Assembly (NCBI GenBank): GCA_943789005.1
Contig: CALSSL010000002.1
Coordinates: forward strand, 141,716-205,715
Direction: 5' to 3'
DNA: 64,000 nt
Source: an uncultured SAR86 cluster bacterium
Lineage (GTDB): Bacteria > Pseudomonadota > Gammaproteobacteria > Magnimaribacterales > D2472
Part shown: positions 12,668-50,042 of the stretch, in pieces
Position numbering within the stretch: the stretch's first letter is position 1
Layout: the number at the start of each line of letters is the position of its first letter
The notes under the pieces: generated by a model
Told to the model about the DNA's origin: nothing
The model's input: the letters and a program-made list of their open reading frames with translations, nothing else
The model's database searches: none
Made by a program: the position numbers and the translations under genes

Positions 12668-13390
12668 TTGACTATTGGGAAAAATCTCATGAATGCAAAT
12701 CCGTTTATATTATTTGGCACAACTCACATTGTTACAATTATTATAATTGCCCTTATTTCAATAATGCTTCCTCGGATTTATAGAACTAAAACTGAATCCC
12801 AAAAATCATTAATGACAAAAGTTATAGCATTTATTATTTTTTGTCATGTCATAATTTCTCCGTATAAAGATTTATATATATTAGCTAATCCATATAACTG
12901 GAGAGAGGTTTTACCTTTACATATGTGTGATTTATCTGAAATCTTTCTAATATGCTTTCTTCTGGGTGGGCCAAGTATATTATATAAATGTGCATTTTTC
13001 TGGGGCTTAGGTGGAGCAACGATGGCCATAATAACTCCTGATATAGCTTTTTTAGATTTAGATTATGCTTTTTTTATGATTGGACATGGAATGATAATTC
13101 TTGGAATTATCTATGCAACTATTGTGCTTAATAATAGGCCTTATGCCAGAGATATCATTACAGTATCATTAATAACTGCATTTATTCTTCTTCCCATAGT
13201 CTATCTTATAAATTATTTATTAGGCGAGCCGGCAAATTATTGGTACTTAATGCAAAAACCTGCTGGTGCAAGTCTAATGGATGCATTTCCTGAGCCACCC
13301 TTTCATCTTTTGATTACAACTCCTTTGGCAATTTTAATCTTCTACGTAATTTATATACCTTATTTTGTTAAGGATAAGTTAAAGAAGTAA
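12668..13390 (+). CDS. Integral membrane protein of unknown function (about 7 TM; YwaF/TIGR02206-like is a guess)
   Basis: 240-aa hydrophobic ORF; the likely start is ATG 12689. Confidence 0.6.
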   Translation: MTIGKNLMNANPFILFGTTHIVTIIIIALISIMLPRIYRTKTESQKSLMTKVIAFIIFCHVIISPYKDLYILANPYNWREVLPLHMCDLSEIFLICFLLGGPSILYKCAFFWGLGGATMAIITPDIAFLDLDYAFFMIGHGMIILGIIYATIVLNNRPYARDIITVSLITAFILLPIVYLINYLLGEPANYWYLMQKPAGASLMDAFPEPPFHLLITTPLAILIFYVIYIPYFVKDKLKK

Positions 13391-27620: not shown

Positions 27621-28904
27621 TTATTTTTGCTTTTTAAGCCTAGCCTCAAGTTTGTCTAAGGCTAAATTTCCAGGCGATCCCTCTGAATAATCTTTTGAAT
27701 TAGATTGAGCATAGCTTGATAAATCACCAGAATTTTTTATTAAATTATATGCATCTCTAAAAGGTTTTCCTTGAGCAACTAGAGCATAAACTTTATCGGT
27801 CATTTTCATCTCTTCATCTATATAAGCAATTGATTTTGATTTGTTTACTTTAATGGAACCTATTAATTTTGGAAGAATATTTAATGATTTAAGGGAGATA
27901 TCAAAGCTTGATATTAAACTTCTTTTTGTTAATTGAAGATCTCTTTGGTAGCCACTTGGAAGTGAAAGAAGGTTCTCAAGTTCTGAAGCTTGACCTGCAA
28001 GTATAGAGTAATTAGCTCTGAGAATTTCTATTACATCAGGATTATGTTTATTAGGCATAATAGAAGAGCCTGTGAGGTATGCTTTATCAATTTTTAGTAA
28101 ATCAAATTCTTGAGATAGAAATAAACTCATATCCCACGAAAACTTTCTTACATCCAGCATTGACTGTTTTAATGTATTTATTATTTGCATTTCATATTTA
28201 CCTCTGCTGTTTTGAATATACAAACTATTTATTTGGGTTCTCTTAAATCCTAGCTCTTTTGTTGTCAGCTTTCTGTCTAAAGGTAGTGACACTCCATAAC
28301 CAGCAGCGCTTCCAAGAGGGTTTGAGTCTATCCACTCTATAGTGCTATTTATTAAATCAACATTATCAATAAATGACTCAGCATAAGATGCAAACCAAAG
28401 ACCCCATGAGGATGGCATTGCCCTTTGAAGATGGGTATAACCAGGCATTGGATTGTTTTCATGTTTTTTTGCCTTTCTCAGCAAAACCCTTGCAATAGAT
28501 TTATTAGATTTCTTGCAATCCATTAGATTTTTTTTAGCAAAAAGTCTCATTGCCACAAGAACTTGATCGTTTCTACTTCTACCTGTATGAACTTTTTTAC
28601 CTAGCTCTCCAAGTTCTTTTATTAAATAAAATTCAATAGCTGAATGACAGTCTTCATATTTCTCAGTTAATTTAAAGGATTTATTTAAAAATTTTAGTCT
28701 TAACTCTTTTAACGATTTAATTAATTTAGCTAATTCAATTTTTTTTATAACACCTATAGAGGCTAGACCTTTGATGTGAGCGATTGTTGCATCAATATCA
28801 TATATAAAGATAGATTTATCTAGCTCAATGTCTTCACCAGCCAAAAATGATGCTATCTCATATGAAGACTCAACACCTTTTGTATTCCATATTTTTTTAC
28901 TCAT
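27621..28904 (-). CDS. argH: Argininosuccinate lyase
   Basis: 427 aa, fumarate-lyase superfamily (TGRSRNDQV, GYTHLQRA, GSSIMPNKHNPD). Confidence 0.93.
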   Translation of the reverse strand: MSKKIWNTKGVESSYEIASFLAGEDIELDKSIFIYDIDATIAHIKGLASIGVIKKIELAKLIKSLKELRLKFLNKSFKLTEKYEDCHSAIEFYLIKELGELGKKVHTGRSRNDQVLVAMRLFAKKNLMDCKKSNKSIARVLLRKAKKHENNPMPGYTHLQRAMPSSWGLWFASYAESFIDNVDLINSTIEWIDSNPLGSAAGYGVSLPLDRKLTTKELGFKRTQINSLYIQNSRGKYEMQIINTLKQSMLDVRKFSWDMSLFLSQEFDLLKIDKAYLTGSSIMPNKHNPDVIEILRANYSILAGQASELENLLSLPSGYQRDLQLTKRSLISSFDISLKSLNILPKLIGSIKVNKSKSIAYIDEEMKMTDKVYALVAQGKPFRDAYNLIKNSGDLSSYAQSNSKDYSEGSPGNLALDKLEARLKKQK

Positions 28905-29841
28905 AATATATCCCAGTTAATTCCTTTAAATTACATGCATAATTTAAATTTTGAATGGCCTGCGTTGCAGCTCCTTTGAGCAGGTTGTCCAAGGTGCAGC
29001 ATACAACTAATCCTAATCCATCTTCATCTATGTCGAATCCGCCGATATTAACAAAATGGCTATTTGATATTTCGTTAATCATTGGTATCTCTTTGCTAAT
29101 TTTTATTAGCTTATAGTCCTGATAATAGTCTTTATAAATATCATATATCTCAGAATTTGTATGCTTGGTCTTCAGCTTAATGTGTGAGGTGATAAGAATA
29201 CCTCTAAAAAAATTTCCGACGTGAGGGCTGAATGCAAGATCATTATAGCAGTGCCTTCTAACTTCATCTTCGTGCAGATGCCCTGAAAGAGAATAAGGCA
29301 TAATATTATCTTTTAAATTCCCTGGATTATTTTTTTCATTAGGAGTTGCGCCAGCTCCGCTGTATCCTGAAATGCCCATACTGCTGACTTTTCCACTAAT
29401 GATATTTTTAATTGGAAATAAAGAAAACTGGATTGCAGATGCATAGCATCCAGGATTACTAATTCTATTTTTTTTTACTGGTTTACAAATTTCAGGAATG
29501 CTATATGTCCAATTATCACTAAATCTATGATCAGCGCTTAAATCAATAATGATCATATTTGAGTTGTATTCTTCAATTTTTTTTACATACTTATGAGATT
29601 TATCATTAGGAAGAGCCATGATTACAATATCTATATCTGATAGATCAATCATTTCTGGTTCATCTAAGTAGCCATATTCCAAATTTGATAATTTTGTATA
29701 CTCTTTAATGCTTTCACCTGCTGCATTTTTAGAAAATACTTTTGATAAGATAAAGTTGGGATGGTTATTTAAAATGACAATAATCTCTTGGCCCACGTAA
29801 CCTCTGCCACCTAACAAAGCAATATTATATTTATTATTCAT
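28897..29841 (-). CDS. argC: N-acetyl-gamma-glutamyl-phosphate reductase
   Basis: 314 aa with GGRGYVGQE and the active-site NPGCYA. It overlaps argAB and argH by 8 nt each. Confidence 0.9.
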   Translation of the reverse strand: MNNKYNIALLGGRGYVGQEIIVILNNHPNFILSKVFSKNAAGESIKEYTKLSNLEYGYLDEPEMIDLSDIDIVIMALPNDKSHKYVKKIEEYNSNMIIIDLSADHRFSDNWTYSIPEICKPVKKNRISNPGCYASAIQFSLFPIKNIISGKVSSMGISGYSGAGATPNEKNNPGNLKDNIMPYSLSGHLHEDEVRRHCYNDLAFSPHVGNFFRGILITSHIKLKTKHTNSEIYDIYKDYYQDYKLIKISKEIPMINEISNSHFVNIGGFDIDEDGLGLVVCCTLDNLLKGAATQAIQNLNYACNLKELTGIYYE

Positions 29842-31141
29842 AATTAATAGTTGCAGGTTGTTTCACTGCATAATCAATACACTTAGTTAATTTATTAAGA
29901 TCATTTATTCCTATCCAAAAAATACTCCATTCATCATATTTTTGAAATCCATCACACACGTCTTTGTAAAAATTATTTATGGCATTATTTGTTCTCGATC
30001 TCCAGAAAACTTGCTTGTGATCTGATAGCATTTTATTCCACATTGCATTACCTAGACCCTCACCTCTTGCAGAGTTAATAACTGCAAACTTATCCATATA
30101 AGCAATGTTTTGATTGTGAGAAATTACTATCGAAGCTCTATTACATGAACTAAGATAAAATTCTTTTTTATTATTCTCAAAGTATCTATTTATCAATTTT
30201 CCCTTGAATGAGGATTCAAGAATTGATGTTATTATTGTCTCCTGCTCGTGATCAAGGTTTTGATATTTATCTATTTGGTGGCCGGCTTTGACTAATGTTC
30301 CAAATCCGGCATCAGTAAAAAGCTCTCTATTTAAATGAAGTGGTTTAGTAATTGATACAGAACTATGACTTGGTAAAATATCTAAAAGCAACTTTATCTG
30401 CTGAAGCTTAAGCTTCATTCCAGAATGAAGCCAATCTTTATTCATTAATCTGTCGTAATCATCTTTAATATTAATATTTGATATTAACTTATTTGTTTCA
30501 TCAAAAATTCCTCCGATCTCACTTAGAAAGATTACTTTATCTGGTGTGATTTCTTGCGCTAGGGCGAGTGTGGCTTTATCACCATTTATATTTACTAGTT
30601 GTTTATCCTCTGTATGTCCTACTGGTGCTACGACGGGAATTCCTCCAGAGTTAATAATTTCTTTTATTTCATCAGAGTTTGTTTCTTTTATCTCTCCTAC
30701 AAAACCAAGCTCTTTATTATCAATATTGCATTTGAATAAATTCCCAATAACTGGAATAGCATTAACACCTTTATCAATAAGTGCAGATATAATTTTTTTG
30801 TTCTCACCACTAAATACTTCGAAGGCAACATCTAGAACTTCTTTTGACGTAACTCTTTGCCCATCTTTAAAAAAAAATGAAATATTTTTTCTTTTAAGCT
30901 CTTCAGATAATTTTGGTCCTCCTCCGTGAACAATAATTGGCTTTAATCCAACTTCATTTAAAAAAGCTAAAGAAGATACTAGATTATCAAGATCATTTTG
31001 AATAACTGCTCCACCAACTTTGATTACAGCAAATCTATAATCGTCAGATGAAAACCTATTCAAATATTTTCTAATTTCCTTCTCACTACTCATTCCGCTG
31101 AGAAGTTTTAGGATGGTATCTTTTTTATAACTTTTGTTCAT
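29834..31141 (-). CDS. argB: Bifunctional-type N-acetylglutamate kinase/synthase (AAK domain plus C-terminal GNAT-like domain)
   Basis: 435 aa with the kinase domain (VIKVGGAVI, IVHGGGP) and a C-terminal acetyltransferase-like domain (...ARGEGLGNAMW...), as in the Xanthomonas/Maricaulis NAGS/K type. Confidence 0.8.
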   Translation of the reverse strand: MNKSYKKDTILKLLSGMSSEKEIRKYLNRFSSDDYRFAVIKVGGAVIQNDLDNLVSSLAFLNEVGLKPIIVHGGGPKLSEELKRKNISFFFKDGQRVTSKEVLDVAFEVFSGENKKIISALIDKGVNAIPVIGNLFKCNIDNKELGFVGEIKETNSDEIKEIINSGGIPVVAPVGHTEDKQLVNINGDKATLALAQEITPDKVIFLSEIGGIFDETNKLISNINIKDDYDRLMNKDWLHSGMKLKLQQIKLLLDILPSHSSVSITKPLHLNRELFTDAGFGTLVKAGHQIDKYQNLDHEQETIITSILESSFKGKLINRYFENNKKEFYLSSCNRASIVISHNQNIAYMDKFAVINSARGEGLGNAMWNKMLSDHKQVFWRSRTNNAINNFYKDVCDGFQKYDEWSIFWIGINDLNKLTKCIDYAVKQPATINYE

Positions 31142-31142
31142 A

Positions 31143-32333
31143 TTACTTTTTATTAACTTCTGTCCATGTAGAAGTACTTTTTCCTAAAAGCTTAATAAAT
31201 CCAGCTGATTCTTCTACGCCCCATGATGCTGATTGAGCATAGATAGCATCCTTGCTGATTAAAATTTTCTTTGCGTCAACACAGACAGCGTCAGCCCTTC
31301 CAGGGCTAAGTAATACTGTAACTTTTCCACTCACTGGTTTTTGAATATCCTCAAGAAAAGTTTCAAGATTTCTAGCCAGTGGATCAAAATAAAAACCACC
31401 ATATACAAGCTCAACCCATTTTTTACCAACTGTAGGTTTAAAGAAGTTCTGTTTATCGGTAAAAATAGATTCCTCTAAAGCTCTATGCGCTTTTTGTAAT
31501 ATTGATATTCCAGGAGATTCAAAAAGAAATCTTCCCTTGATTCCTATAATAGTGTCACCAGCAAAGATTTCTCTACCTATTCCATACTTGCCACCAATTT
31601 TATTTAACATTCTTAATAAATCTGCACCTTTTATGGGTTTGCCATCTATTTTTTTAGCTTCGCCTTTTGCAAACTCAATAGTTATTTTCTTAGTTTTAGT
31701 AGGATATTTATCTGGGGTGCTACACAAGATATAGCTTTCCTTTGATGGTTCTTTCCAATCATCAATCTCTGAACCTGAGACTGTAGCACCCATCAAGTTT
31801 TCATTAATACTATATTTAGTATGCAAAGAAGAAACTTTAAAGCCTCTCTCAGTTAAATATTTCTTCTCATAGCCTCTTACATCAGAAACTTTATTTTGAA
31901 TTTCTCTTATAGGTGTGATTATTTTGTAATTTCCAAATGCTTGAATTGATAAATCAAATCTAACTTGATCATTCCCCATACCAGTACAGCCATGAGATAT
32001 ATATTTAGTATTTAGTTTTTTACAAAGCTTGATAGCTTCAGAGACAATTAAATATCTATCAGAGCAAAGCGCCGGATACTTATCCTGATAGTTTGATCCA
32101 GACCAAATAAGAGGTTTTATAATTTGATTCCAAAGTTTAAGTTCAACATTTACGTTTAAATGTTTTTTAGCTCCAAGTTCTAATGCTCTATTTGATATTT
32201 TCTTTTCCTCATTGATTGTAGTGCCTCCTGTATTAACAAAAATTGTATAAACTTCGAAACCTTGTTCTATTAAGTATGGGACACAAAAACTTGTATCCAA
32301 GCCGCCTGAAAATGCACAAACAATTTTTTTCAT
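31143..32333 (-). CDS. argG: Argininosuccinate synthase
   Basis: 396 aa with AFSGGLDTS and GCTGMGNDQVRF. Confidence 0.95.
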   Translation of the reverse strand: MKKIVCAFSGGLDTSFCVPYLIEQGFEVYTIFVNTGGTTINEEKKISNRALELGAKKHLNVNVELKLWNQIIKPLIWSGSNYQDKYPALCSDRYLIVSEAIKLCKKLNTKYISHGCTGMGNDQVRFDLSIQAFGNYKIITPIREIQNKVSDVRGYEKKYLTERGFKVSSLHTKYSINENLMGATVSGSEIDDWKEPSKESYILCSTPDKYPTKTKKITIEFAKGEAKKIDGKPIKGADLLRMLNKIGGKYGIGREIFAGDTIIGIKGRFLFESPGISILQKAHRALEESIFTDKQNFFKPTVGKKWVELVYGGFYFDPLARNLETFLEDIQKPVSGKVTVLLSPGRADAVCVDAKKILISKDAIYAQSASWGVEESAGFIKLLGKSTSTWTEVNKK

Positions 32334-32335
32334 TT

Positions 32336-33337
32336 TTATTTATCCTTTAGTAATTTAGTTAATAATGATTTTTGAACATGAATCCTATTACCAGCCTCTT
32401 GAATGGCAACACAAGAATCTGAATCCATAACCTCATCTGTTGCTTTAATATTTCTTCTTAAGGGCAAGCAATGACTAAACAAAGCATTATTAGTCATATC
32501 CATTTTTCTTTTATCAACAATAAAATGCTTAAATTTATCTCTAATAATTTTTTCCTCTTCTGGTTTGCCATAATATTTTAGAGAACCCCAGCTTTTTGCA
32601 TAAACAATATTGGCATTTGCATACCCGTAATCAATATCATGGGTAATCTCAAAACTTGTGTTATTTTGATCACAATTATGCTGAGCTTCATTAATATAGC
32701 TTTCATGCAAAATATAATCCTCAGTTGGACAAAGTAACTTCACATTCATACCAAATTTACTTGCTATCATTAATGATGAATTAGCAACCGCTGTATTCAA
32801 TGGTTTGGGATGATATGTCCAAGTTAATAGATAATCTTTACCTTTTAGATCTCCTAATTTTTCTTGCATTGTTAGAATGTGCGCCAATTCTTGGCAAGGA
32901 TGGGTAATAGTCTCCATGTTAACAACAGGTACTGATGCATATTTAGCAAAACTATTAATTACATGATCTGTTAAGTCTTCTTCTAAATTTATAAATTTTG
33001 GAAATGCTCTAATCGCTATTAAATCACAATATTCAGAAAGCACCTTTGCAACTTCTATAATATGTTCTTCTGAATCCTCGTCCATGATGGCATTTGGCTT
33101 AAATTCTATTGGCCATGCGTCTTTTCCTGGATGAAGAACAACAGCATATCCGCCTAACTCTTGAATACCTAGCTCAAAACTTGTCCTTGTTCTCATAGAA
33201 GGATTAAAAAACAATAATGCAACTGATTTATTTTTTAATGTATTTTGAAACTTGTTAACTTTAAGATCTTTTGCATGATCTAAAATGTCTTGAAGTTCAT
33301 TCTTTGTCCAATCTTTTGTTGATATAAAATTTTTCAT
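32336..33337 (-). CDS. argF': N-acyl-ornithine carbamoyltransferase (AOTCase/SOTCase type, argF')
   Basis: 333 aa with the transcarbamylase motifs SMRTRTS, HPCQ and HCLP. It has YAKSWG where classical OTCases have the DxxxSMG ornithine loop. Confidence 0.8.
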   Translation of the reverse strand: MKNFISTKDWTKNELQDILDHAKDLKVNKFQNTLKNKSVALLFFNPSMRTRTSFELGIQELGGYAVVLHPGKDAWPIEFKPNAIMDEDSEEHIIEVAKVLSEYCDLIAIRAFPKFINLEEDLTDHVINSFAKYASVPVVNMETITHPCQELAHILTMQEKLGDLKGKDYLLTWTYHPKPLNTAVANSSLMIASKFGMNVKLLCPTEDYILHESYINEAQHNCDQNNTSFEITHDIDYGYANANIVYAKSWGSLKYYGKPEEEKIIRDKFKHFIVDKRKMDMTNNALFSHCLPLRRNIKATDEVMDSDSCVAIQEAGNRIHVQKSLLTKLLKDK

Positions 33338-33352
33338 AATTCACTTTCTTTA

Positions 33353-33381
33353 AAATAAAAAAAACCCAGCAAAAGCTGGGT
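33353..33381 (-). terminator. Intrinsic terminator 16 nt upstream of the argF' start codon (end of tRNA-Leu transcription and/or arg leader attenuator)
   Basis: Minus strand: ACCCAGC-tttt-GCTGGGT (33381-33364) followed by a T8 run (33364-33357). Confidence 0.7.
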
Positions 33382-33406
33382 CTAATTCACAATAGGAAAG
33401 ATCCAG

Positions 33407-33451
33407 CTATATAGCTGAAGCCCGTCTTTCTTGTGTTAAATAGTTTCTCAT
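33407..33451 (-). promoter_or_regulatory. Candidate arg-operon leader peptide ORF (MRNYLTQERRASAI) overlapping an alternative hairpin
   Basis: ATG at 33451, tandem Arg codons AGA CGG at codons 9-10, stop TAG at 33409-33407 inside the palindrome CAGCTATATAGCTG (33417-33404). Confidence 0.3.
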
Positions 33452-33459
33452 CGCCGAGT

Positions 33460-33487
33460 AGTATATAGATATAAATGTATTTGTAAA
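33460..33487 (-). promoter_or_regulatory. Sigma-70-like promoter of the arg leader/operon
   Basis: Minus strand: TTTACA (33487-33482), 16 nt, TATACT (33465-33460). The leader ATG lies 8 nt downstream of the -10. Confidence 0.45.
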
Positions 33488-33503
33488 CTTGCTTTCTCTA
33501 AAA

Positions 33504-33588
33504 TGGTAGGGATGGAGGGAGTCGAACCCCCACGCCTTGCGGCACTTGGTTCTAAGCCAAGCGTGTCTACCAGTTCCACCACATCCCC
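33504..33588 (-). tRNA. tRNA-Leu (anticodon UAG)
   Basis: Acceptor GGGGATG/CATCCCT, anticodon stem CTTGG/CCAAG with loop CTTAGAA, long variable arm (TGCCGCAAGGCGT), T-loop TTCGACT, encoded CCA. Confidence 0.9.
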
Positions 33589-33598
33589 GGATTGAAGC

Positions 33599-33628
33599 AT
33601 TATATAGATTATTATTATGTTATGGAAA
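33599..33628 (-). promoter_or_regulatory. Sigma-70-like promoter for tRNA-Leu
   Basis: Minus strand: TTTCCA (33628-33623), 18 nt, TATAAT (33604-33599). The -10 element ends 10 nt before the tRNA 5' end. Confidence 0.35.
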
Positions 33629-33635
33629 GATTAAT

Positions 33636-34025
33636 TTACAAATTATAGTCAAGTTGATTTTTTCTAGTTTTCTGCAGCAGATATAAACTAATTGCCATAA
33701 TAGCTCCCATGATGGTACTTGCAATAGCTATGGTTGTGTAACCATCATAGATAAAACTAAAAAGCTTAGAAGCCAACATCACCGCTATTATATATAAGCA
33801 TATTGAGCCTACTTGAACTTTTGATGATGAATATAAAAATCTCATAGACAAATATCCAATAGCCGCAATAAAACCAGCATATGTTCTTGCAAAATGGGCC
33901 TCTTGAATAGTTTCTGCAACTATCGGTATAAAGATAGTATTAACATCAGGTGATAATATTGTTGTTATGCCTGCAACCAAACATAAAGCTGAAATGCAAA
34001 AAATAAAGATTTTTACCAAAATCAT
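33636..34025 (-). CDS. Small 4-TM membrane protein of unknown function
   Basis: Start MILVKIF... at 34025 overlaps the upstream gene's stop in an ATGA junction. Entirely hydrophobic. Confidence 0.55.
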   Translation of the reverse strand: MILVKIFIFCISALCLVAGITTILSPDVNTIFIPIVAETIQEAHFARTYAGFIAAIGYLSMRFLYSSSKVQVGSICLYIIAVMLASKLFSFIYDGYTTIAIASTIMGAIMAISLYLLQKTRKNQLDYNL

Positions 34026-48788: not shown

Positions 48789-50042
48789 ATGCAATCAGAA
48801 CCCTCTTTGTTATTTTTATTTCTATCTTTAATTAGCTTGCTAATTTTAAGTGCTTTTTTCTCAGGCTCAGAGACTGGCATGATGGCTGTAAATAAAATTA
48901 AATTAAAAAACCTCTCAAAAAAACCGGACAGGGGGGCAAAAAGAGCACTAAAACTTCTTAAAACGCCTGATCTATTGCTGGCAACTATTCTGGTTGGAAA
49001 TAATTTTGCAAATATATTGGCCTCATCAATAGTTACCATAATAATGTTGAACTATTTTGGTGGTAATGTCTTGCTTGGCGCAGTTTTGTTAACAGCATTT
49101 ATACTTATTTTCTCTGAGATAACACCCAAAACAATGGCTGCTGTGAAACCTGAAAGTTTTGCTAGAAGATCATCTCTTTTACTAAAAATACTTCTGTATG
49201 TTCTTAGGCCTCTTATAGCTATAACAAACTATATAAGCTCAAAAGTTCTAAAGATTTTCAATATAGATGTTGAAGATGCTAAAGATAATGACAATCTGAA
49301 CACTCAAGAGCTCAAAACTTTATTAGATGAATCTGGTGATCTAATACCAAAACAATATAGAGGTATGCTTTCTTCTATTTTAGGAATGGAGGAACTTGTA
49401 GTTGAAGATATCATGACGCCCACTTCTGAAGTTATAGGTATTGATATTGATTTAGGCTATAAGGAAAATAAAGACGTTATAGAGTCTTCAGAATATACTA
49501 GACTTCCAGTTTTTAAGAGCTCTATTGATAATGAGCTTGGTACTCTTCATTTAAAAGATTCGCATGACTTTTTGGATAAGATTGAATCTAAAAAAGATGT
49601 TCGTAGTGAATTATCAAAAACTTACTTTGTATCTCAATCAACTGCTTTAATGAAACAGTTAAAAGAGTTTCAAGATAATGATAAAAATATGGCACTGGTT
49701 GTGGATGAGTATGGAGAAATTCAAGGTTTAATAACAATTGAAGATATTTTTAAAGAAATTGCAGGCAAGTTTGGTAGTGATAGGGTTGAGCTCGAAAAAG
49801 AGTTTATTAAGTTAAAGGATGGATCAATTTTAACAGACGGCAACTCTCGGATTCGCGATTTAAACAACTACTTGGATTGGTCTATACCTGAAGAAAATTC
49901 AAAAACTATAAATGGACTTATAACAGAATATTTAGATCAAATACCTCAAGCTAATTTATGTATTGAAATACAAAATTATAGATTTGAGGTTTTGGAGATT
50001 GATGAAAATTCAATATCAAAAATTAAAATAAAAAAGAATTAG
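48789..50042 (+). CDS. CNNM/CorB-type transporter (DUF21 membrane domain, CBS pair and CorC_HlyC domain)
   Basis: 417 aa. The N-terminal 4 TM helices carry the SGSETGMMAV motif, followed by a CBS pair and a C-terminal CorC/HlyC domain. Confidence 0.88.
   Translation: MQSEPSLLFLFLSLISLLILSAFFSGSETGMMAVNKIKLKNLSKKPDRGAKRALKLLKTPDLLLATILVGNNFANILASSIVTIIMLNYFGGNVLLGAVLLTAFILIFSEITPKTMAAVKPESFARRSSLLLKILLYVLRPLIAITNYISSKVLKIFNIDVEDAKDNDNLNTQELKTLLDESGDLIPKQYRGMLSSILGMEELVVEDIMTPTSEVIGIDIDLGYKENKDVIESSEYTRLPVFKSSIDNELGTLHLKDSHDFLDKIESKKDVRSELSKTYFVSQSTALMKQLKEFQDNDKNMALVVDEYGEIQGLITIEDIFKEIAGKFGSDRVELEKEFIKLKDGSILTDGNSRIRDLNNYLDWSIPEENSKTINGLITEYLDQIPQANLCIEIQNYRFEVLEIDENSISKIKIKKN

Follow-up and report, generated by a model that had tools for sequence, protein, structure and literature searches.

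How is an operon expressed when an intrinsic terminator stands between its promoter and its first gene, and what decides whether the polymerase passes? The arginine biosynthesis operon argF'-argG-argB-argC-argH of an uncultured SAR86 cluster bacterium, a gammaproteobacterium, raises this question. It lies in a 64,000-nucleotide stretch of DNA (contig CALSSL010000002.1 of GenBank assembly GCA_943789005.1, positions 141,716 to 205,715 of the forward strand; G+C content 32.6%), which we call the window and whose own numbering is used throughout. On the minus strand, between a tRNA-Leu gene and argF', is a short region that an earlier note on this DNA had read as a candidate attenuator governed by the arginine codons of a leader peptide. 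The elements present, their conservation, their alternative pairings and their geometry all support that proposal. We put at roughly 80% the probability that this region is a ribosome-mediated leader-peptide transcription attenuator, with charged tRNA-Arg as its signal and the five-gene arg operon as its target. The evidence is computational throughout, except for published Northern blots and 5' rapid amplification of cDNA ends (5'-RACE) of a Xanthomonas RNA, Xoo5, with which the leader is compared below.

Every element of the candidate attenuator can be read from the minus strand between 33487 and 33357. A sigma-70-type promoter consists of a -35 hexamer TTTACA (33482–33487) and, after a 16-nt spacer, a -10 hexamer TATACT (33460–33465), and it scored 10 of 12 consensus matches in a promoter scan. 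Eight nucleotides past the -10 hexamer, at 33451, is the ATG of a leader open reading frame (ORF) of 14 codons that ends in TAG (33409–33407) and encodes MRNYLTQERRASAI (33407–33451); its codons are ATG AGA AAC TAT TTA ACA CAA GAA AGA CGG GCT TCA GCT ATA TAG. No Shine-Dalgarno sequence precedes it in the window. Because the ATG lies 7 to 9 nt past the -10 hexamer, here and in the relatives described below, and no Shine-Dalgarno sequence is present, the ORF is probably read as a leaderless message, and the same distance implies a 5' untranslated region of about 0 to 2 nt. Codon conservation singles out AGA CGG (codons 9 and 10; 33422–33427) as the regulatory arginine codons. The whole control element, with its 14-codon ORF, is very compact at 95 nt.

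Downstream of the arginine pair the RNA can form two competing sets of helices. Segment 1 (UUCAGCU, 33413–33419) is the 5' arm of an anti-antiterminator hairpin, UUCAGCU-AUAU-AGCUGGA, at 33419–33402, whose loop and 3' arm hold the stop codon; the UAG shares the first two bases of segment 2 (AGCUGGAUCU, 33399–33408), which can pair with either segment 1 or segment 3. In the minimum free energy (MFE) structure this hairpin stands on a lower stem, with its 5' strand CACAAGAAAGA at 33425–33435, overlapping codons 6 to 9, and its 3' strand UCUUUCCUAUUGUG at 33388–33401, a pairing also seen in the alignment. Segment 3 (AGACCCAGCU, 33374–33383) is the 5' arm of the intrinsic terminator, and segment 4 (GCUGGGUUU) together with the U8 tract occupies 33357–33370. 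The terminator itself, AGACCCAGC-TTTT-GCTGGGTTT, lies at 33383–33362 with a 9-bp stem and the U8 run at 33364–33357. From that run to the ATG of argF' (33337) is 19 nt, or 14 nt when the AUUUU that comes next is taken as part of the run, and there is no room in those 19 nt for a second promoter. In the alternative structure, the 2:3 antiterminator, AGCUGGAUCU (33408–33399) pairs with AGACCCAGCU (33383–33374) at 9 of 10 positions with one A-C mismatch. Both hairpins were recovered by a hairpin scan of the window, and the leader RNA folds at -35 kcal/mol (z = -3.8) into the 1:2 structure and the terminator, a value that none of 200 shuffled sequences matched. The earlier note had listed this promoter, the 14-codon ORF 8 nt past its -10 hexamer, the hairpin that includes the stop codon and the lack of room for a further promoter, and we found each as it was described. 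The terminator with its U8 run and the alternative 1:2, 2:3 and 3:4 pairings are likewise present, but the gap to argF' is 19 nt and not 16, and the antiterminator has 9 pairs out of 10 where a 6-bp helix had been given. The lower stem, the missing Shine-Dalgarno sequence, the leaderless start that the layout implies and the kinship with a wide family that takes in Xoo5 all go beyond the note.

The spacing of these parts suits a ribosome-controlled switch. In the window the arginine pair ends 13 nt upstream of segment 2; when a ribosome is placed with CGG in its A site, segment 1 lies inside its expected footprint (the footprint size being taken from general knowledge). We folded the RNA as it would be before segment 4 is made, masking nucleotides 1 to 39 to imitate a ribosome whose A site holds CGG. 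Under this masking the antiterminator is the MFE structure, at -11.5 kcal/mol in the window. In three relatives (loci L005, L006 and L090) it is a perfect 10-bp helix of -19.7 kcal/mol and beats the terminator (-16.2 kcal/mol) even at full length. By these energies the antiterminator is a real competitor; the earlier note had named a failure to compete as a possible refutation. With a ribosome placed at the stop codon, only the terminator forms. The leader therefore combines, by computation, a 2:3 antiterminator that excludes the terminator by sequestering its 5' arm with a stall site from which segment 1 but not segment 2 is covered; once at the stop codon, a ribosome would cover segment 2 instead. 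Arginine, the product of the pathway, is the amino acid encoded at the conserved ORF position, and an intrinsic terminator, with no promoter after it, separates the ORF from the first gene.

The course of events that we propose is as follows. From the TTTACA-16-TATACT promoter, the start point of transcription would coincide with the leader AUG or lie no more than about 2 nt from it, and ribosomes would translate the 14-codon ORF as a leaderless message. With ample arginine, a ribosome would run on to the UAG and either cover segment 2 or release, after which the long 1:2 structure would re-form; segments 3 and 4 would then form the terminator, and the polymerase would halt on the U8 run, 19 nt short of argF'. 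A shortage of Arg-tRNA would instead stall the ribosome with AGA or the very rare CGG in its A site, hiding segment 1 and leaving segment 2 exposed. The free segment 2 could then pair with segment 3 as soon as the latter is made, no terminator would form and the operon would be transcribed. Transcripts that are not translated, such as those reading through from the tRNA-Leu gene, would fold into the 1:2 structure and terminate by default. What we infer in this sequence of events is where transcription starts, that the ORF is translated without a leader, that ribosomes stall and the polymerase pauses, and that the system responds to arginine.

If the arginine codons do the sensing, they should persist in relatives while the rest of the peptide drifts. 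Through ArgF' homology and a metagenome scan we gathered 16 distinct SAR86 leaders of the window type. All 16 have an ORF of exactly 14 codons with ATG and TAG, and in all of them the TAG overlaps AGCUGG. The reading frame of the ORF is free of stops in 16/16; of the other two frames, one is interrupted in 15 leaders and the other in 13. Codon 10 specifies arginine in every leader (CGG in 15, AGG in one) and codon 9 in 14 of the 16. Codons 2 to 8, in turn, are nearly unconstrained, giving peptides that begin MRNYLTQE, MIRTKAQF, MINTNTRL, MYKFNPQP, MHNLSLQN or MKLNTTNE, among others. Free codons 2 to 8 with fixed arginine are the pattern expected of a sensory ORF and not of a functional peptide. 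The earlier note had counted three arginine codons including the tandem pair; all three are in the window ORF, and conservation in SAR86 backs the pair and not the arginine at codon 2. The promoter is kept as well: TTTACA stands 16 nt before the -10 hexamer in 13 of 16 leaders, TTTCAA takes its place in L095 with the spacing unchanged, and a regular-expression search found none in L101 and L009. In the leaders with a located -10 hexamer (15 of the 16) the distance from it to the ATG is 7 to 9 nt in every one. The outcome that the note had named as damaging, relatives that keep the terminator and lose the mini-ORF or its arginine codons, did not appear in these 16 leaders.

The choice of codon is itself unusual. 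CGG is the rarest arginine codon in the window, at 2 of 524 arginine codons (0.12 per 1000); those two, at 12773–12775 and 49848–49850, are the only ones among 16,056 codons in 44 long ORFs. Other SAR86 loci use it once in 279 arginine codons. This nearly unused codon is still fixed at position 10 of the leader (33422–33424 in the window) in 15 of the 16 SAR86 leaders. So rare a codon would sharpen a sensor that has just two codons to work with.

The helices are conserved along with the ORF. A covariance model built from 15 of the SAR86 leaders (R1) has one full-length match in the 64-kb window, on the minus strand at 33357–33451 with 108 bits; its other match, of 21 bits, is antisense and lies over the palindromic terminator. 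Each SAR86 locus has one copy before argF'. Across the 15 leaders the lower stem (alignment columns 17–21 with 60–64) is 93% paired, with two pairs changed on both sides, as in CACAAU/AUUGUG to CACAAC/GUUGUG; the segment 1:2 hairpin is 81% paired, and the terminator is paired in 99% of cells. In the 1:2 and lower-stem helices together, 7 pairs have changed on both sides, a number reached in 3 of 500 shuffles. The 2:3 helix is paired in 88.7% of cells, versus 18 to 56% when the partner columns are slid. Outside SAR86, in Kangiella, Xanthomonadales and unrelated loci, R1 scores were 17 to 46 bits and reflect the terminator only, so that they do not prove homology. The terminator pattern is a poor guide by itself: when metagenomes were scanned with it, about 110 of 120 stretches were unrelated terminators and about 10 were true leaders. 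The sequence ACCCAGCTTNNGCTGGGTTTTTT recurs after ribosomal-protein, tRNA and porin-like genes in diverse bacteria (L081–L200). ACCCAGC-N4-GCUGGGU is a common terminator and alone is not diagnostic of arg leaders.

The same arrangement extends beyond SAR86. Within 300 nt upstream of argF', almost all of 80 species-representative loci have a short ORF with an arginine run. The Kangiella ORF reads ...QQRRRSRI.PAG... with arginine codons CGA CGU CGC, that of Kangiellaceae ...IIRRRRRSSCAGVR, that of Wenzhouxiangellaceae ...LRRRSRRP..., and that of Xanthomonadales ...GMTSRARRPE...AG*, where the Xanthomonas codons are CGU GCC CGC CGA. Because the arginine codons differ between lineages, it is the identity of the encoded amino acid, and not the nucleotides, that is conserved. 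In these lineages segment 2 was placed solely as the best partner of the terminator 5' arm. Among 44 loci examined in this way, the corresponding ORF had arginine runs in 44/44; the one frame that is open and has its stop codon between -2 and +29 nt relative to the start of segment 2 carried 1 to 6 arginines in its last 8 codons, and the most arginine-rich frame averaged 3.3 arginines versus 0.77 for the other two frames. The distance from the arginine pair to segment 2 was 5 to 17 nt in 29 of 30 loci, the row for L009 being uninformative since an ORF spanning the tRNA had been picked there. Segment 2 also changes with the terminator: where the latter is ACCCGGC/GCCGGGU, segment 2 is GCCGGG (L065, L069, L070 and L075) or the wobble-compatible GCUGGG, and an incompatible combination was never seen among the loci examined. 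These co-changes probably represent few independent events.

Could the hairpins instead be switched by a trans-acting protein of the TRAP or PyrR type, or by a small molecule bound to a riboswitch? In favour of this, the segment 2-3 loop (CCUAUUGUGAAUUAG) and GACGGG are strongly conserved as nucleotides in SAR86, and the ORF lacks a Shine-Dalgarno sequence. Much of the conserved loop, however, is explained by the lower stem with its compensatory changes, no complex conserved aptamer is present, and no Rfam family scores above threshold at the leader. Across lineages, moreover, it is the arginine codons, the open frame and the placement of the stop that persist while the nucleotides differ, and we regard a factor or riboswitch as an improbable explanation of the leader.

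Support for attenuation in another lineage comes from an RNA already in Rfam. RF02242 (Xoo5) matches the Xanthomonas locus L053 at 2731–2854 with 146.9 bits and the Stenotrophomonas locus L037 at 2729–2850 with 91.4 bits, and in both it falls on the Arg-rich leader ORF that precedes argF'. The RNA itself had been obtained by cloning from X. oryzae, with its 5' end mapped by 5'-RACE, and it gave Northern bands of about 130 and 100 nt; it was presented as a small RNA (sRNA), in a paper with no mention of arginine or of a leader peptide (Liang et al. 2011, PMC3039613). In L053 the RF02242 model starts CU-AUG, with its position 1 two nucleotides before the leader AUG. If position 1 is the RACE-mapped end, as we assumed (model and cloned RNA are both 124 nt long), the 5' end of Xoo5 lies 2 nt before the AUG, as the SAR86 promoter spacing predicts. 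Leaderless mRNAs have been reported to be frequent in Xanthomonas, at 14% (PMC3300014).

Xoo5 resembles the window element in its position upstream of argF', in an Arg-rich ORF (...SRARRPESHIFAG) that ends in GCUGGGUAA and is followed by ACCCAGCC/GGCUGGGU with a U-run, and in an Arg-to-segment-2 spacing of 13 to 17 nt; Pseudoxanthomonas even shares the stop arrangement AUC-UAG-CUGGGU with SAR86. It differs in having a 33-codon ORF and extra hairpins, and the Rfam model ends about 12 nt before the terminator hairpin. RF02242 was not listed for window positions 32800–34000 at E values up to 10 (its gathering threshold is 50 bits), and neither Kangiella nor the other SAR86 loci reached that threshold. 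By this measure the window leader does not belong to RF02242. Position, the sequences of segments 2 to 4 and the geometry nonetheless point to a common ancestry of the window leader and Xoo5. Xoo5 is most simply explained as the terminated arg leader transcript, and RF02242 looks like a cis-regulatory leader that has been given the wrong type.

The opposite view of the same data is that the primary product is a trans-acting sRNA, as Xoo5 is annotated, and that its place before argF' is secondary. Xoo5 does accumulate as a discrete RNA of about 100 to 130 nt (PMC3039613) and is filed by Rfam as an sRNA gene, and a report on Sinorhizobium describes an attenuator RNA, rnTrpL, that also acts in trans (bioRxiv 10.1101/606483). 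A terminated leader transcript, however, is exactly what an attenuator yields; in SAR86 no second promoter serves the arg operon, and the Arg-codon ORF is conserved. Action in trans would be compatible with attenuation and could be an added function, and as the primary role of the RNA we consider it very improbable.

A more prosaic possibility is that the hairpin merely terminates the tRNA-Leu gene, or is a generic terminator, that the arg operon is transcribed by constitutive leak-through, and that the ORF and the pairing are incidental. The tRNA-Leu(TAG) gene lies directly upstream on the minus strand (33504–33588), has no terminator of its own and ends 16 nt (33488–33503) before the leader -35 hexamer; a promoter-like site for it was found by the promoter scan at 33628–33599. 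The linkage of tRNA and leader recurs in several relatives, among them L101, where argF' does not follow, and the exact terminator sequence is common in many unrelated bacteria. The tRNA is, however, upstream of the leader in some relatives only. In L001 and L005–L008 promoter, ORF and hairpins are kept before argF' with no tRNA upstream, and in Kangiella and Xanthomonadales the leader likewise precedes argF' without one. The frame, length and arginine codons of the ORF are conserved while other codons vary, and segment 2 tracks changes in the terminator. Since the leader stays with argF' where the tRNA is absent, we rejected this explanation as highly improbable.

The attenuator may nonetheless serve the tRNA too. 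Because the tRNA gene has no terminator and ends 16 nt before the -35 hexamer, its transcripts must, on the sequence as it stands, run into the attenuator, which would then double as the tRNA-Leu terminator: in such read-through RNA the leader AUG is internal and lacks a Shine-Dalgarno sequence, so the RNA should fold into the 1:2 structure and stop. The last and least credible alternative, that the leader encodes a nascent-chain arrest peptide sensing free arginine in the exit tunnel, and not the supply of Arg-tRNA, in the manner of the fungal arginine attenuator peptide or TnaC, could draw on the Xanthomonadales sequence ...GMTSRARRPE..., which is conserved well beyond the arginine codons, but that conservation overlaps RNA helices of the Rfam model, a stall at high arginine would let the polymerase through just when arginine abounds, the reverse of what a biosynthetic operon needs, and we rejected it for SAR86 because residues 2 to 8 are essentially unconstrained in the window's clade.

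Several observations weigh against an arginine-sensing attenuator and temper our estimate. The SAR86 transcription start, the translation of an ORF that lacks a Shine-Dalgarno sequence and the response to arginine are inferred. In the window the antiterminator (-11.5 kcal/mol) is weaker than the terminator (about -16 kcal/mol), and therefore read-through would, by the folding model, depend on kinetic pre-emption; the E. coli trp leader relies on kinetic pre-emption likewise. The regulatory codons number only two, and L009 has a single arginine there (CUU CGG). The invariant GACGGG could be a constraint on nucleotides and not on codons, and stalling at CGG would be constitutive if the genome lacks tRNA-Arg(CCG). 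Covariation within SAR86 is modest. The terminator hardly varies, and fetching the metagenomic leaders by a terminator pattern biases this helix toward invariance.

In its logic the window leader is close to the classical attenuators of E. coli and Salmonella (trpL, hisL, leuL, thrL, pheL and ilvL; in Rfam Trp_leader, His_leader, Leu_leader and others): it shares with them an ORF rich in cognate codons, the 1:2, 2:3 and 3:4 pairings, an intrinsic terminator right before the first gene, and a stop codon so placed that a ribosome that has not stalled blocks segment 2. The trp leader has two tandem regulatory codons and the leu leader uses a rare codon (CUA in E. coli), both as in the window leader. 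It differs in the amino acid, arginine, in the absence of a Shine-Dalgarno sequence, in a predicted 5' untranslated region of about 0 to 2 nt and in its size of 95 nt. An Rfam scan of the region at E values up to 10 placed only the tRNA-Leu above threshold; RF00512 (Leu_leader) reached 22.1 bits against a threshold of 50 and RF02651 (SorY) 31.7 against 111. The Leu_leader model aligns weakly to the same hairpins of the window leader. We rejected this match, that to SorY and the other sub-threshold ones as reflecting a generic layout of two hairpins plus terminator.

Three published systems share parts of the design. In the Salmonella speF leader, two consecutive arginine codons of the upstream ORF orf34 report the arginine supply and select between mRNA structures (Ben-Zvi et al. 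2019, PMC6386406). Paired arginine codons in an upstream ORF are common to both, as mRNA structures chosen by ribosome speed would be; speF, however, encodes ornithine decarboxylase and no enzyme of arginine biosynthesis, its leader is long with an ORF of 34 codons, and it works through Rho-dependent termination, unmasking of the ribosome-binding site and RNase G decay and uses no intrinsic terminator. Mycobacterial polycysteine leaderless short ORFs, whose shared sensor logic over several loci has been called a "ribulon" (Canestrari et al., bioRxiv 10.1101/834739), present a leaderless cognate-codon ORF as the first cistron of a biosynthetic operon, as is predicted for the window; there the organisms are Actinobacteria, the amino acid is cysteine, and the stalled ribosome acts translationally by unmasking a downstream ribosome-binding site, whereas the window has an intrinsic terminator. 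In E. coli, the small ORF argL and the 5' end of argF overlap in different reading frames, and translation of argL affects argF expression (bioRxiv 10.1101/511675). Like the window ORF it is a small ORF upstream of an argF gene with arginine genes as the target; it differs in overlapping argF, and the paper describes no terminator-based Arg-codon sensor. We set argL and the carA motif aside as precedents, being different things. In the full text that we searched, whose coverage leaves out most subscription journals, no Arg leader-peptide attenuator for arginine biosynthesis was described.

Repression by ArgR at ARG boxes is the textbook control of arg genes in Enterobacteria, and ARG boxes usually occur in tandem and overlap the promoter. 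This control has the same physiological target as the window leader, which differs in having no ARG-box-like site between 33338 and 33520: no match to the 18-bp consensus palindrome TNTGAATWWWWATTCANW was found there at up to 3 mismatches. Over the whole window there were 105 matches versus a mean of 117.5 in shuffled sequence, which is not above chance.

Leader-peptide attenuation is textbook knowledge for Trp, His, Leu, Thr, Phe and Ile/Val, and arginine biosynthesis is taught as controlled by ArgR. If our interpretation of the leader as an Arg-codon attenuator is correct, arginine joins the amino acids that are sensed by attenuation, and does so through a widespread element carried by SAR86, by Kangiella and by the plant and human pathogens Xanthomonas and Stenotrophomonas. 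SAR86 are among the most abundant marine heterotrophs. The mechanism would be classical; what appears new is the amino acid, the leaderless start, the rare-codon sensor and the reinterpretation of Xoo5, a Northern-validated "sRNA" that would become the terminated leader of an arg operon. A compact and apparently leaderless attenuator of 95 nt and 14 codons with the rarest codon in its sensor could also serve as a model system and as a building block for synthetic biology, and its signature could be used to annotate arginine-responsive genes in uncultured genomes, such as that of a TonB-dependent receptor (below). Rather unlikely, and offered as speculation, is a wider picture in which SAR86, and perhaps Kangiella and Xanthomonadales, sense arginine mainly through leaderless Arg-codon mini-ORFs and not through ArgR. 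In that picture a small ribosome-directed regulon would include the TonB-dependent receptor gene, the SAR86 sensor would hinge on the almost unused CGG with a minor tRNA-Arg(CCG) kept in a streamlined genome largely for this purpose, and the terminated RNA (Xoo5 in Xanthomonas) might also act in trans.

The genes downstream of the leader are clear. The first gene of the operon, argF' (minus strand, 32336–33337), encodes N-acetylornithine carbamoyltransferase (NCBIfam NF003384; score 528.8 bits, cutoff 288), and its nearest relatives are ArgF' proteins of SAR86 single-cell and metagenome-assembled genomes at 82 to 88% identity. It is followed on the same strand by argG, argB (a long NAGS/K-like form), argC and argH (27621–32333; NCBIfam), which are tightly packed or overlapping. 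The genes past argH, for an MFS transporter and AMP nucleosidase, are unrelated to arginine.

Some relatives depart from this arrangement. On the GOS contig AACY023500460.1 (L101), a leader of the same type (minus strand 543–634; R1 score 66.6 bits; MLNVNLHRRRGASA, with three arginine codons) follows a tRNA-Leu and precedes not argF' but a gene for a TonB-dependent receptor (Pfam Plug, E = 3e-19), a hint that control by the Arg leader reaches beyond arginine biosynthesis genes. In another SAR86 subclade (L010–L015) the architecture is different, and argF' directly follows panC-panD. In L010 (2561–2968) and L013 the C-terminus of PanD reads ...SSIPTQRIRSL* and ends 26 nt before argF'; in L012 (2816–2962), L014 and L015 there is an ORF of 40 to 48 amino acids, like a shrunken PanD, that ends ...SIPVKRRLRSI* or ...SRRRRSI*. 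A hairpin then follows in this subclade, with no clear U-tract in L010, L012 and L013. These loci may have a different Arg-codon control, possibly translational, that was derived from the 3' end of panD.

In three SAR92/Porticoccaceae loci (L016, L018 and L021) the stretch of about 250 nt before argF' has no Arg-rich leader ORF, and near argF' a T-run is lacking too in L018 and L021. The upstream regions in this group are AT-rich with TGAAT/ATTCA-like motifs, for example TATGAAAATTCT, and these loci may use an ArgR-type operator instead. Finally, two loci labelled as metagenome-assembled genomes of other groups, L011 (Rhodobacteraceae) and L024 (Polaribacter), have a gammaproteobacterial-type argF' whose product shares 72% and 64% identity, respectively, with the protein of the window. 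A leader ORF with RRRR, like that of Kangiellaceae, is present in L024, and both are probably mis-binned contigs.

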